Positions 3,001 to 9,000 of a DNA stretch of 9,362 nt are shown one piece after another. The stretch covers positions 1-9,362 of the forward strand of contig JBDKUT010000035.1 of NCBI GenBank assembly GCA_039679545.1. Direction: 5' to 3'. Position numbers: made by a program. The stretch is from Thermotogota bacterium (lineage in GTDB: Bacteria; Bipolaricaulota; Bipolaricaulia; UBA7950; UBA9294). How positions within the stretch are numbered: the first letter of the stretch is position 1; every line of letters begins with the position of its first letter.

Positions 3001-6000
3001 CACTACGCGGGGATGAGCGGGAGCGGATCCGCATTCTACGCGGCGTTTGTGGAGTCTTCGGAGGCGCGCTGTGCCGCTGACGTTCTCGAGCGCATGTTTC
3101 CGGAGGCGAGGGTGTTCCTGTGCCGGCCGACGCCCTCCGCAAGCCGCCGGGTCAATGAGGGGAGGACGACGTGAGGATCGCCATCGATGGTCCAGCCGCA
3201 TCGGGGAAGACATCGCTCGGACGAGCGCTCGCCCAGCAGTTCGGGTGCCGGTTCATCGAGACCGGGAAGATGTACCGGGCCGTCGCCCTCGGCCTGGTGC
3301 GCGGCCTCTCGCTCGATCGGATCGTCATCGATGTCGCCGAGCCGGAGCGGTTCCTCCTGAACGGGGAAGACGTCACCGACCTTCTCCACACCCCTGAGTT
3401 GGATCAGGCATCTTCGGAAGCGGGAACACGCCCTGAAGTCCGCGCGCGTCTGGTCGCCCTCCAGCGACGGATCGCCACAGGCATCGACGTCGTGATGGAG
3501 GGACGCGACATCGGCACGGTCGTCCTGCCCGACGCCGACGTCAAGATCTTCCTCCAGGCAAGCCCCGACGTGCGTGCCCGGCGCCGTGTCGACCAACGAG
3601 CCGGCGCAGATGTCGGTCGGACCCTTCACGAACTGCTCGTTCGCGATCGGAGAGACTCGACACGGGCGATCGCACCCTTGAACCCCGCTTCTGATGCGAC
3701 TATAATCGACACGGATCGAAAGACCCTCGCAGAGGTCATTTCCGAGGCAGTCAACCTGGTTAAGGAGCGGTTACTAGGACATTGACGCGACGCCTACGCA
3801 TCGTTGCCAAGAACGTCTTCTACACGGGCGCCGTCTGTCTCCTGCGCCTCGTTCTCGGACTCCTCTTCCGACTTCGGGTCAAAGGGAGGGCGAACGTCAA
3901 GCGAAATGAAGGATACATCGCTGTCGCCCGGCATCGGAGTTACTGGGACATCCCGTTGCTCGCGGCCGCGATGGGGATCCGCAATCGGATCCACTTCATC
4001 TCCCGCAAAGGACTGATGAAATCGAACCCTCTCGTTCAACCGCTGATCCATGCCTACTCGACGATCATCGATCGCGAGAACTTCGGGAAGTCGGACTTCC
4101 GTCGGATGCTCGAGGCCGTCAGGACCGAGCGACTCGTAGCGATCTTCCCGGAGGGCACGACACGCAAGCAGGTCGACGCCAAGGCTGGCGCCGTCTACTT
4201 CGCTTCGCTCGTCGGGAAGGCCATCGTCCCAGTCAACATCCGCTCTCAGGGACCGTACCCGCCAAAGTACCCGTTCCGCTTCCCGCGGATCACCGTGTCG
4301 ATCGGCGAGCCCGTGACCATCGAGGCTCTTGGGCGCGACGTGAGCGAAGCGGGATGCAGATCGGAGAAGCTTCGCGCGATGAGCGATCGGCTCATGGAGT
4401 GCGTGGATCGGGCATGATGAGTGTAAGATGCAACTCGCGGAAGTGGGCCGGGCGCCCCAGCGCGCGCCGGGAAGCGAAGTCCGGATCTGGCAGTGGAGCA
4501 TGGAACAGAAAATAAAGATGGAGGACGCTTTCTCTGAAAGCGATGTCAAGACGTACAGCCGCGGAGACACCATCTCCGGGACTGTCGTTCAGGTGAGCGA
4601 CAACGAGATCCTCGTCGACATCGGATACAAGTCCGAAGGGATCCTTCCGGTGTCGGAGCTGTCCCCGTTCCGCCCCGGTGGAAAGATCGAGCAGGGCGAG
4701 CACATCGAAGTGCTCGTGACCTACATCGACGAGGAGAAGGGGACCGTCTACGCGTCCGAGAAGCAGGCCGAGTACGAGAAGCGCATCGACGGCCTTGAGG
4801 CCGCGTACCACGAAGGGCACGTTGTCGAAGGCGAAATCACAAGCGAAGTCAAGGGTGCGGGGTACCACGTCAACCTCGACGGAATCCGCGCCTTCCTACC
4901 GGGTTCGCACCTCGGCGGGGATCTGCCGAGCAGCATCGACGAACTGCGCGGCAAGAGGATCCAGTTCAAGATCCTCGAGCTGTCGCGGCGCGACAAGAAC
5001 CTGGTGGTTTCCCACAAGGAGTTCATCAAGGAGCGCGAGCGGTTGCGACGCAAGGCGCTCTTTGACTCTCTCACGCCCGACCAGGAACTCGACGGCGTCG
5101 TACGCAGCATCGTCGACTTCGGGCTCTTCGTCGACATCGGCGGCTTCGAGGGCCTCGTTCACCGATCCGAGATCGCGTGGAAAGACCTCCCGGTTCCGCC
5201 TGCCGAGTACAAGATCGGCAGTCCGGTCAAGGTCAAGGTCATCGACTTCGACCGCGAGAAGGGCAAGGTGTCCCTCTCGATCAAGCGGCTCCGCCCGAAC
5301 CCGTGGGACGGCATCTCCAAGCGCTACTCGACCGGTACCCAGGTCGACGGGAAGGTTGTCAGCGTTACCGACTTCGGCGCGTTCGTCGAACTCGAACAGG
5401 ACGTTGAAGGGCTGGTCCACGTTTCTGAGCTCTCGTGGGGACATCCGGAGAACCCCAAGGATGTCGTCAGCGAAGGGGACGTTGTTCCGGTCGTCGTCCT
5501 GAGTTGTGACGAAGATGCGCACCGAATCAGCTTGTCGCTCCGGCGGACCCAGCGCGATCCGTGGGAGGATGCGGAGAGCAAGTACCCGCGGGGACAAGTG
5601 GTCACGGGCGTAGTTACGAAAATCACCGACTTCGGCGCGTTCATCAAGCTCGAAGAGGGGATCGAGGGACTCGTCCACGTGTCGGAGATCGACTGGGGCC
5701 ACGTCAACCACCCGCGCGACCTTCTCAAGGAAGGCGATTCGGTCGACGTCAAGGTGCTCGGCGTCGATTCACGGGAGCGCCGCATCTCGCTCAGCATCCG
5801 CGAGCTGAAGGACAACCCGTGGCGCCGCTTCGTCGACCAGTACGCGATTGACCAGATCGTCGAGGGTGAGATCACCGAGATCAAGGACTTCGGCGCGTTC
5901 ATGAAGATCACCGACGACGTCGATGGGCTCATCCACGTCTCGGAGATCTCCAACGAGCGAATCGCGACCCCCGCGGACGTCCTGGCCGTCGGCTCGAAGG

Positions 6001-9000
6001 TTCAGGCGAAGATCATCGGGATCAACGAGGAGAAGCACCAGGTTCGCTTGAGCATGCGGAACCTGTTCGGCCCCCCCGAGGTTCCGACGGCGCCCGTCGA
6101 CGAGAGCGACCGCGATCGAGGAGGCAAGGGACGACGCCGTCGTGGTGCCGCTCCCGGAACTCCCACGGGCGGCAAGGAGCGAGGTCCGAAGGCGCGAGAA
6201 CGCGAGCGCGTCGACCGACGCTTCCTCGACGAAGGCGGGCACGAGTCGCTTAGCATGCGCGATCTGCTCGGCAAAGCGGGCATTGACGACGAATCCTAGT
6301 CCAAAGGTACTTGTGCAGAGTAAGCAAGGAGGATTGTAGATGAACAAGGGCGAATTCATCGATCGGCTGGCCGACAAGTCGAGCCTGACGAAGAAGGAAG
6401 CGAGAAAGCTCCTCGACGGAGTCCTCGATCTGATCCAGAGCACCCTCCTCGAGGGCGAGGAGGTCAAGCTCGTCGGGTTCGGGAAGTTCGCTGTCCGCGC
6501 TCGCAAGGCGAGCAGTCGCATCAACCCGCAGACCAAGCGCCCGATTCAGGTCGAGGCGAAGGTCGTTCCCCTGTTCAAGCCGGGAAAGGAGCTGAAGCGG
6601 CGGATCGAGAAGGCCCTCAAGGTCGCGCCGAAGGGCGTCACGCGAAAGTAGCGTGACGCTTTTCACCCCAGCGAAATGACCCAACGGCCGGCGACAAACG
6701 CCGGCCGTTCTCTTCGTCTCTTGTCGAACGCACCCGCTACGCGTGTCCGACGATGCGCAGCCGTTCGGCCATGACGATCGCCCGCAACTCATCCACGGCC
6801 GTGGCAAGGTCGCCGTTCAAAACCAGGTAGTCGAAGATCTCCAGGCTCTTCATTTCTCGCGCTGCCGCACGCAGCCGCTCGGAGATCTCGGCCTCCGATT
6901 CCGACCCGCGTGCGCGCAGTCGCTCGCCCAGCTGGCTGAGCGACGGAGGCGCGAAGAACACGAAGGAGAGCGTCACGTCCGGAACGCCCACGCGTCGGAG
7001 CGTGCAGGCTCCCTGCACATCGACGTTCAGCACGACGTCCAGCCCCTGCGCCGTCAGCCGCTTCATCTCCGCCTTCGACGTCCCGTACCGGTCGCCGAGG
7101 TACACAGCGTGTTCGATGAACCCCCCCGCCTCAACCAGGTCCGCAAACTCGGCGTCGGACACGAAGTAGTAGTCGACGCCGTTCCGCTCTCCCGGCCGCG
7201 GGGTGCGCGTCGTATGGGAGACGGAGTAGACGAGGCCCGGCACTCGAGCGATCAGTGCGCTGATCGCCGTGTTCTTGCCGGCGCCCGATGGGCCGGATAC
7301 GACGAACGCGAGGCCCCTCCCCGCTCCCCGGCGGAGGGATGAAAGGTCGTCACTCGACATTCTGAACCTGCTCCCGCATTTGTTCGACACACATCTTCAT
7401 ATCCAGAACCGTGGCGACGATCTCGCTGTCGCGGGCCTTCGAACCGAGTGTGTTGATCTCGCGGAGGAACTCCTGACCGAGGAAGTCCAGCTCCTTTCCC
7501 ACGGGTGACGTTCTGCGGAAAAGCTCCCGCGCCCTCGCGATGTGCCCCTTCAACCGGACCAGCTCTTCCTGGATGTCGAAGCGGTCTGCGTAGAGAACGA
7601 CCTCTGTCTCGAGGCGCTCCGGGTCGATCGCGACGTCAAGGCCCTCGATCCGCTCGAGAAGCTTGTCCCGCAGCCCGGTGAGTACCGATGGGAGGCACCC
7701 TTCAATCGCCGTCGTACCGGACTCCAGAGCATCCGTCAACCGGGCAAGCTCGGTTCGCAGCACCCCGCCTTCCCGCTCACGAGCCGAGATCAACGCTGCG
7801 AGTGCCACCTCCAGCGCGCGCTCTGCGGCAGGCCACAGCGCCTCGTCGCTCTCCTCGCGGATCTGGAAGCCGCCGGCGCGAATAAGGTCGCCCAAGGTCG
7901 GCGGTGCTTCGAGCTCGAGCTCGTCGGAGAGCTCTTGCAGCGCGGCGTGAACGCGGCGGGCGAGCGCACGATCGACGTTAGGACCGTCACCCGGCCCCTC
8001 GTTCTCCTCGATGGCCAGCCACACGCCGACATCGCCGCGAGCCAGCGCTCCCCGGATCTTCTCCTCGATCTGGGCGTGGAGCCACGGACGTTCGCCGACC
8101 GACCGGATCCGCACGCTGAGGAACCGGTGATTGACCGACCGAATCGTCGCCTCGACCCTCCACCCGTCGAGCGCCGCCGCACCGGCCCCAAACCCGGTCA
8201 TGCTTCGCATTGGCTCAATCCCCCCTGCGCTATCGTAACCCCCGCGTACCCCACGACCGCTGTCCGATCCCCAGTCGAGTCCCCCGACGTCTCGTAGGCA
8301 ACGAGCGACGACCCTCTCCAGCCCCTTCGACTCGCGAGAGCGAGCAGGGTCGCGATCGCCCCCACACCGCAGATCGAGAAGCGACCCTCCACGCAGACTC
8401 GGTAGAACCGGGCCGGGTCGACCGCGAGGATCGGATCGAGCGCCACACGGTCCCGCTCCCTTGCGACCGAATCCGCCTCGTAATGGGTGAAGTCACTCGA
8501 CGCCACAACCCACGTCACGCGCCCTCCCGTCGTCTCGAGCAGCGCCGCCGCGCCCGCGCTGAGTTCTTCCAGCGACCCTGGCTGTACACAGACCGGAACG
8601 ATCGGGACCGGGTCGTCCCACAAGTCCTGCAGGAACGGAAGCTCGACCTCGACCGAGTGCTCGCGGTGGAACGCGGGCTCGTAGATCTGCATTCCCGCCG
8701 CCACCAGCGTCCTGATCGTTTCGCGATCAAGCGGCACATCACCGAGCGGGGTACGCCAGGCCGCCGTATCGGACAACGAGAATGTCGGTCCAAGGCCTGT
8801 GTGGCTCGCGCCGAGCAGGATCACCACGTCCGGGCGTCCGCATTCGAGCGCCCGCCGAAACGTTGCCCCGGCCACGCGCCCCGAGTACGGATACCCCGCG
8901 TGCGGGACCACCAGCCCCACCGATTCTCGTGCACTACGCACCATCGGCCGTTCGCCCAGGAGCCGACGCACGGTCGACCTCAGGACGTCCGGATCCCCAG

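Follow-up and report, generated by a model that had tools for sequence, protein, structure and literature searches.

The window, that is, the whole stretch of 9,362 nucleotides analysed here from a Bipolaricaulota genome, holds an ordinary housekeeping block, cmk-plsC-rpsA-HU, at positions 3171-6651; the real finding is genome-wide. The genes of the block and its surroundings are as follows:

142-1041, (-) strand: era, upstream of cmk; NF000908 316.9 bits (cut-off 237), with MMR_HSR1 and KH_2 domains
3171-3785, (+) strand: cmk, (d)CMP kinase; TIGR00017 182.7 bits (cut-off 135.55), PF02224 201 bits
3782-4417, (+) strand: plsC-like acyltransferase; PF01553 63.8 bits
4428-6299, (+) strand: rpsA, ribosomal protein S1; NF004952 710.2 bits (cut-off 524), six S1 domains (PF00575 in six stretches)
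6340-6651, (+) strand: HU/IHF-family DNA-binding protein; PF00216 104.7 bits
6737-7390, (-) strand: gmk, convergent with the HU gene; TIGR03263 200.6 bits (cut-off 160.45)

The gene calls agree with the order given in the genome-wide survey's note, namely cmk, plsC and rpsA followed by an HU gene. The plsC-like gene is named at the family level only, because it scores 57.7 bits with TIGR00530, under the cut-off of 102.95. On the gene at 6340-6651, none of the IHF and HU equivalog models exceeds its cut-off. The block is closed by gmk, and there is no der downstream. The note had taken der to be missing at this locus. However, E. coli K-12 likewise has cmk-rpsA-ihfB: synteny is no evidence of a missing der here, and the idea of a local gap or syntenic "hole" is rejected. 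In both arrangements cmk, rpsA and an HU/IHF-family gene follow one another on one strand, with the HU gene of the window at the place of ihfB, and the plsC-like gene is inserted between cmk and rpsA in the window only. E. coli does have a der gene, at another place on its chromosome.

Searches for Der in the genome and across the phylum

Der is regarded as a GTPase that every bacterium has and needs, and it serves as a single-copy marker for genome placement and completeness estimates. The genome that contains the window is 93.55% complete and consists of 163 contigs. When searched with the full-length Der/EngA model TIGR03594 (curated cut-off 306.7 bits), it yields 8 matches. The best of these, at 121.4 bits, is a true MnmE (TIGR00450, 339.9 bits), and the second, at 91 bits and with one G domain covered, is Era (NF000908), as the survey had stated. 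PF14714, the C-terminal KH-like domain of Der, has no match in this genome at E≤10. Using tblastn, three real Der proteins find single G domains only (MnmE, Era and others), with both G domains of each Der aligning to just one G domain, that of MnmE or of Era, while their C-terminal 95 residues give E-values of at least 0.32. No ORF of the genome has two MMR_HSR1 matches. Profile matches also bear out the survey's statement that Era, Obg, HflX, YchF and MnmE are kept, with HflX, Obg and YchF all above cut-off.

Across the phylum, neither Der model scores above cut-off in any of 184 genomes. The best matches are 144.6 bits over one G domain for TIGR03594, and E = 0.0038 (18.5 bits) inside a 920-aa ORF for PF14714; with TIGR03594, Der is above cut-off in none of 11 families and none of 54 genera. 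The top Der-model matches of the phylum, found in ORFs of 465-487 aa, were considered as diverged Der and rejected, as they cover one G domain only and their counterpart in the genome of the window is MnmE. A genome search that reads through stop codons found no der relic in this genome or in the phylum. The survey's claim that Der is lacking from both is thus upheld with positive controls, since 10/10 bacterial controls are above cut-off for both models; none of 4 archaeal control genomes has a Der-model match above cut-off. Era, used as a positive control, is above cut-off in 175/184 phylum genomes and is found in all 71 high-quality ones at E≤1e-10, and the same Der search in metagenome-assembled genomes (MAGs) of other phyla is above cut-off in 29 of 30, at 441-560 bits. 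MAG incompleteness therefore does not explain the absence of Der.

It is very improbable, in our estimate, that Der is present and was overlooked, whether because it is too diverged, split into single-G-domain genes, or located on DNA that assembly or binning systematically leaves out. The phylum is represented mostly by MAGs, the genome of the window is itself incomplete and fragmented, and two of its G-domain fragments, on C90 and C138, lie at contig ends, as the pieces of a broken der might. However, the C90 fragment is the N-terminus of YchF (TIGR00092), and the C138 fragment reads by its sequence as a piece of EF-Tu. Moreover, Der is also lacking from two genomes closed as one contig each, G005 (96% complete) and G006 (99%), and no ORF carrying two MMR_HSR1 domains occurs in them or in G129, G085 and G100. 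There are 10 separate MMR_HSR1 matches in G005 and 8 in G006, of which 5 and 6, respectively, were tied to a family. Coinciding matches of separate searches assign Obg, Era and a DRG-like protein (see below), and classification of the G-domain matches identifies HflX in both as well as Gmk and EF-G in G005; the stronger matches are those of Obg, Era, HflX and the DRG-like protein. One match in G006 is assigned to IF2 because rbfA adjoins it. We read the others as FeoB, YchF, IF2 and EF-G-like, judging only by the size of the ORF and the pattern of its matches, and none of the matches looks orphan. The failure of both the KH-like domain search and the relic search, as well as the recovery of Era, likewise argues against an overlooked gene. 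We hold with high confidence that der is truly absent from the phylum, and its absence from all 11 families and 54 genera points to a single ancestral event: this is a real, ancestral, phylum-wide loss of der.

Retained assembly factors and a DRG-like GTPase

Other assembly factors are missing as well. RimM is found in 0/184 phylum genomes; the gene order is rpsP-khpA-trmD, and the gap of 6 bases between khpA and trmD leaves no room for rimM. YbeY is found in none of the 24 genomes with a completeness of 90% or more. Both absences, for which MAG incompleteness does not account either, had been claimed by the survey, as had the uneven distribution of RimP, which is found in 12/24 genomes, in families f3, f6 and f8 only and not in f1. 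A 2026 preprint (10.64898/2026.08.26.747336) describes the loss of YbeY in Bipolaricaulota along with a truncated uS11. RbgA and RsgA are each absent from the 5 genomes searched, and YihA is found in 1/184. In turn, Obg and uL1 are present in 24/24 genomes and RbfA in 22/24. The 23S rRNA, of 3022 nt in G006 and 3037 nt in G005, covers the whole Rfam model, and E. coli positions 2085-2205, which we take to be the stretch holding helices H76-H78, are gap-free in the Bipolaricaulota alignment. The uL1 protein and the L1 stalk are thus not seen to be lost along with der, as is described for the CPR. Compared with E. coli, the 23S rRNA shows small differences: it lacks 15 nt near E. coli position 1755, 9 nt near 1865 and 14 nt near 2795. 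Genome sizes in the phylum are about 1-4 Mb.

Since Der is, to our knowledge, essential wherever tested, some compensation is plausible. Another protein could stand in for Der at the pre-50S particle, on its peptidyl-transferase side, either the DRG-like HTH-G-TGS GTPase encoded at C114:377-1345, which the survey had put forward for this role, or an unrecognised lineage-specific factor; we consider such a non-orthologous replacement rather unlikely. The DRG-like protein has 323 aa, with an Obg-like G domain (MMR_HSR1, residues 82-175) followed by a C-terminal TGS RNA-binding domain (residues 251-321), which is the DRG/Rbg architecture. Its best NCBIfam matches are Obg models, at about 50 bits and far under cut-off, and its homologues carry the JGI label "ribosome-interacting GTPase 1". 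As regards the S5D2L insertion of archaeal and eukaryotic DRG, longer relatives (353-392 aa) match it in two separate segments, which suggests an insert in those relatives that the 323-aa protein lacks. As the survey had said, the gene belongs to the core of the phylum: it is found in 169/184 genomes and 69/71 high-quality ones, at 46-100% identity, and is thus about as frequent as Era.

These properties, a G domain joined to an RNA-binding domain and a near-universal distribution, would suit a replacement. However, the short DRG-like family is also found, at 41-49% identity, in MAGs labelled Acidobacteriota, Latescibacterota, Armatimonadota, Anaerolineales, Gemmatimonadota, Planctomycetota, Nitrospirota, NC10 and others, and Der is above cut-off in 29/30 of the non-Bipolaricaulota genomes that carry it. 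The presence of the DRG-like protein is therefore not tied to the loss of Der, which weakens the survey's proposal and leaves a Der-specific replacement by this GTPase unsupported. In the genome of the window its gene lies beside an ATP-cone/PRK-family gene and a radical-SAM gene; this context is not ribosomal and is uninformative as to its role. In a preprint on Rbg/DRG proteins (10.64898/2026.05.13.724932), they are linked to paused translating ribosomes and the GTPase-associated centre, not to subunit assembly. No candidate for a lineage-specific factor emerged. Profile and BLAST searches are blind to a non-homologous replacement.

A proposed pathway of large-subunit maturation without Der

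The explanation that we propose starts from what is observed: which factors are absent, which are retained, and a 23S rRNA that is not reduced. The ancestor of Bipolaricaulota would have lost der in a single event, and rimM and ybeY with it. The large subunit would then mature by an Obg-centred pathway in which Obg and HflX suffice and there is no dedicated analogue of Der. Slow-growing anaerobes with thermophilic ancestors may cope with late 50S steps that are slower or more error-prone, and slow growth and such ancestry would relax the need for Der. We favour this explanation as a whole by a small degree; on the specific point that Der has no dedicated replacement, we consider the chances even. 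Against the Obg-centred pathway, Obg is not known to make Der dispensable in E. coli or B. subtilis. In addition, efficient in vitro reconstitution of the 50S subunit needed both ObgE and Der, according to work cited by Amikura et al. (PMC12641178), and the core DRG-like TGS GTPase (169/184) could have assumed some of the work of Der. Precedent for life without Der is offered by four CPR classes and by Omnitrophota, as reported in PMC12641178 and PMC10066038.

If Obg and HflX are indeed the sole classical large-subunit GTPases, then the essentiality of Der would depend on something that has changed in this lineage, be it an unseen lineage-specific factor or a property of the rRNA or ribosomal proteins, and this difference could come to light by comparison with Der-containing relatives. 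Completeness estimates that count Der, RimM and YbeY as markers are biased low for this phylum. The survey's note had seen Der as a questionable universal antibacterial target; its value as a drug target in Der-bearing pathogens is not undermined by Bipolaricaulota alone.

Comparison with other lineages that lack Der

The survey's note presented a natural Der-less pathway as new, but Der-less bacteria were in print earlier (PMC12641178, PMC10066038). According to Amikura et al. 2025 (PMC12641178, citing Brown 2015), the CPR classes Paceibacteria, Dojkabacteria, WWE3 and Microgenomatia lack der, and this loss is accompanied by loss of uL1 or shortening of H78, short rRNAs (median 23S of 2384 bases) and small genomes. 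The same paper notes, from one genome each, that Bipolaricaulota and Omnitrophota have fewer assembly factors than the CPR. Beyond this one-genome remark (the per-genome tables of PMC12641178 being outside our literature search), we found no statement that Bipolaricaulota or Acetothermia lack Der.

The Der-less CPR resemble Bipolaricaulota in the lineage-wide absence of der, the retention of obgE and the loss of several further assembly factors. In Bipolaricaulota this absence stands beside the recovery of other single-copy translation genes (Era, Obg and uL1). Unlike the CPR, Bipolaricaulota show no ribosome reduction, with uL1 in all 24 genomes, a full-length 23S rRNA with 2085-2205 intact and genomes of about 1-4 Mb, and they keep Era and RbfA. 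Omnitrophota are, like Bipolaricaulota, a phylum outside the CPR in which most members lack the Der marker; Seymour et al. 2023 (PMC10066038) took TIGR03594 out of their CheckM marker set because Omnitrophota systematically lack it. The marker is termed "infrequently present" there, not absent everywhere, in contrast to 0/184 in Bipolaricaulota, and the title and abstract describe Omnitrophota as ultra-small cells with host-dependent traits.

As a tentative claim that we rate below even chances, Bipolaricaulota might be the first bacterial phylum that is apparently free-living and of normal cell size, has uL1 and a 23S rRNA of full size, and matures its 50S subunit with Obg and HflX as the sole classical large-subunit GTPases; "sole" refers to Der in 0/184 genomes, YihA in 1/184 and RbgA in 0/5 searched. 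We know of no pure culture of any Bipolaricaulota member. In Hao et al. 2018 (PMC6092417), Ca. Bipolaricaulis appears by FISH as prosthecate rods and is inferred to be a fermentative chemoheterotroph. As a third Der-less lineage, without the reduced ribosome and apparently without the host dependence of the CPR and Omnitrophota, Bipolaricaulota uncouple the loss of Der from genome reduction and provide a cleaner natural comparison on what makes Der dispensable.

Archaea lack Der, and their GTPases of the Obg-like superfamily include DRG/Rbg and Nog1. Bipolaricaulota are like the 4 archaeal control genomes in having no Der match above cut-off, and like Archaea in having a DRG-type G-TGS GTPase. 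They differ from Archaea in keeping the bacterial Obg, Era, HflX and RbfA, and their DRG-like protein belongs to a short type, about 325 aa long, that occurs widely among bacteria. To the few known Der-less bacterial groups, Bipolaricaulota thus add a lineage that is apparently free-living and has a full-size ribosome.

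Genes of the window and G domains of its genome

The window corresponds to C35, one of 163 contigs in a genome of 2.35 Mb (93.55% complete). Near relatives of its proteins are named Candidatus Bipolaricaulota or Bipolaricaulia at NCBI. Its genes are organized as follows:

142-1041, minus strand: era
1124-2335: amidohydrolase
2323-3174: ispE
3171-3785: cmk
3782-4417: plsC-like acyltransferase
4428-6299: rpsA, six S1 domains
6340-6651: HU/IHF-family gene
6737-7390, minus strand: gmk, convergent with the HU gene
7350-8210, minus strand: yicC
8198-9055, minus strand: Memo/AmmeMemoRadiSam-B gene

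No der gene, which encodes the tandem-G-domain GTPase of 50S assembly, is found downstream of rpsA in the window. The genome-wide survey's note had pointed out that the cmk-plsC-rpsA block, in many bacteria followed by der, here precedes an HU gene. The arrangement is as described, but it does not indicate loss, since the E. coli K-12 genes are likewise ordered cmk-rpsA-ihfB. The missing der after rpsA is thus uninformative by itself, and the finding concerns the genome and the phylum rather than this locus.

In the genome as a whole, eight regions match TIGR03594, the model of full-length Der (cut-off 306.7 bits), each over one G domain and the highest at 121.4 bits. The top match is a true MnmE (TIGR00450, 339.9 bits vs. 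252.6), and the second is the Era of the window. PF14714, the C-terminal domain specific to Der, is not matched anywhere in this genome even at E<=10. A G-domain inventory was then compiled using PF01926 at E<=1, with the matches read as protein and classified. It contains MnmE, Era, Obg (461 bits), HflX (412 bits) and YchF (350 bits), all of which the survey's note had listed as present. It also includes a DRG-like G-TGS protein and the N-terminus of a YchF that is truncated where contig C90 ends. Further matches were read, by sequence and size, as probable FeoB, IF2, EF-Tu and three EF-G-type proteins. The inventory holds no ORF with two G domains, and no YihA, RbgA or YqeH. As a profile-independent test, three genuine Der sequences, translated from MAGs outside the phylum, were compared with the genome using tblastn: the two G domains of the queries converge on identical targets, namely the single G domains found in MnmE (84-87 bits) and Era, while their last 95 residues reach only E=0.32 at best.

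The inventory also touches on gene copy number. The cut YchF-like gene (C90:43298-43540) is a second one beside the full-length YchF (C119:33120-34205); two YchF-pattern matches also occur in G129, a genome of the same family, and one in other families. Besides the full tuf on C60, the N-terminal part of another EF-Tu is found at the end of a contig (C138:1-270) and represents either an additional tuf copy or contamination.

Absence of Der across the phylum

The search was extended to 184 species genomes of the phylum, covering 11 families and 54 genera and including 71 of high quality. None exceeds the cut-off for TIGR03594 (top 144.6 bits, one G domain) or for PF14714 (best E 0.0038, in a 920-aa ORF). 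Era, the positive control, is above cut-off in 175 of the 184, and in all 71 high-quality genomes at E<=1e-10. Both Der models are above cut-off in 10/10 bacterial control genomes, and Der scores 441-560 bits in 29 of 30 MAGs from other phyla, the sole miss being a MAG labelled Methylomirabilota.

Two closed genomes of family f3, G005 (96% complete) and G006 (99% complete), have 10 and 8 separate MMR_HSR1 matches, respectively, never two per ORF. The coordinates of Obg, Era and the DRG-like protein coincide with such matches in both; one further strong match in each is HflX (389 and 385 bits), and two weak ones in G005 are Gmk and EF-G. The others were read as FeoB, YchF, IF2 and an EF-G-like protein, based on ORF size and match pattern. 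With the matches accounted for, no candidate half of a split Der is left, and the closed genomes settle the worry about binning. No der relic was detected, though the genome search runs through stop codons. The claim that Der is absent from this genome and its phylum is therefore borne out by 0 of 184 genomes, closed ones included, and we conclude that der was lost once, before the families split.

MnmE does not appear in the G-domain inventory of the two closed genomes, where the sole HflX/MnmE-type match is HflX; the best Der-model matches for family f3 are Era. This suggests that MnmE was lost in f3 and kept in f1.

Other assembly factors and the DRG-like GTPase

Other factors were surveyed in up to 184 genomes or in a 24-genome panel representing all 11 families, every genome being >=90% complete. 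RimM is found in none of the 184, as opposed to 10/10 bacterial controls. In the window's genome, rpsP is followed by khpA (positions 1261-1494 of the L150 extract of contig C163) and trmD (from 1501), and the six-base khpA-trmD gap lends local support to the absence of RimM. YbeY is likewise missing (0/24), and RimP is confined to families f3 (8/8), f6 (1/1) and f8 (3/3), i.e. 12/24. The survey's statements on all three factors thus hold. RbgA and RsgA were not found in the five genomes searched, while an FtsJ-domain methyltransferase (RlmE or TlyA) is present in 5/5. Obg and uL1 are retained in 24/24 panel genomes and RbfA in 22/24. YihA/EngB is above cut-off in 1/184, with a model that detects just 6/10 bacterial controls. 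This single case (G100:C3:14676-15215; 173.2 bits, 208-aa ORF) may reflect horizontal acquisition or contamination.

Also on C163, ffh (SRP54) carries an in-frame TAG between its G and M domains (88466-88468; L150 467-469). The halves around it score well (PF00448, 158.9 bits; PF02978, 76.4 bits), and the TAG may stem from an error made in sequencing or assembling the MAG, or else be a true nonsense codon within an essential gene.

The DRG-like protein (C114:377-1345; 323 aa, MMR_HSR1 at 82-175, TGS at 251-321) had been proposed as a stand-in for Der. It is a core gene of the phylum, present in 169/184 genomes and 69/71 of high quality (E<=1e-40). The family is not special to Bipolaricaulota: 494 representative clusters match at E<=1e-30, a species-genome scan gives at least 598 loci, and the matches listed at 41-49% identity include MAGs labelled Acidobacteriota, Latescibacterota, Armatimonadota, Anaerolineales, Gemmatimonadota, Planctomycetota, Ignavibacteriales, Nitrospirota, Syntrophales, NC10, Poribacteria and others. 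From 80 listed loci, 30 genomes without a Bipolaricaulota-type label were chosen, and 29 of these DRG-like carriers also have Der. In the window's genome, the neighbours of the gene are unrelated to ribosomes, and a preprint describes Rbg/DRG on paused translating ribosomes, not assembly intermediates (10.64898/2026.05.13.724932). It is possible that the protein aids 50S assembly in the phylum; nothing singles it out, and its proposed role as the Der replacement is unsupported.

The 23S rRNA and known Der-less groups

The 23S rRNAs of G006 (3022 nt) and G005 (3037 nt) cover the whole Rfam model and are about 70% identical to E. coli rrlH (2904 nt). The region of E. coli 2085-2205, which we take to be the L1-stalk helices, aligns gap-free. 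Deletions of at least 6 bases occur only near 891, 1755, 1865 and 2795, the last three measuring 15, 9 and 14 nt; insertions of 27 and 61 nt are located near 272 and 297, of 20 nt near 543 and of 26-38 nt near 1512.

The loss of Der is real and robust. We infer that late 50S assembly might follow a pathway based on Obg and HflX, in which Bipolaricaulota would have no dedicated Der analogue.

The survey's note had presented a natural Der-less ribosome-assembly pathway as new. Life without Der stands, but the novelty was overstated, as CPR classes and Omnitrophota are already in print. A survey of 100 assembly factors reports der missing from four CPR classes, links this to uL1 loss or H78 shortening, and describes Bipolaricaulota (one genome in its set) and Omnitrophota as having fewer factors than CPR, with more genomes needed (Amikura et al. 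2025, PMC12641178). For Omnitrophota, Seymour et al. 2023 (PMC10066038) excluded TIGR03594 from the markers used to estimate completeness, as it was systematically missing there, and a preprint reports YbeY loss together with truncated uS11 in Bipolaricaulota (10.64898/2026.08.26.747336). Our literature search found no paper naming Der as absent from Bipolaricaulota. What is new here is the scale, i.e. 0/184 over all families with closed genomes included, and the context of the loss. For Ca. Bipolaricaulis, a closed genome, an inferred fermentative lifestyle and images of prosthecate rods have been reported (Hao et al. 2018, PMC6092417). Compared with the known Der-less groups, the Bipolaricaulota ribosome is unreduced and the lifestyle apparently independent.
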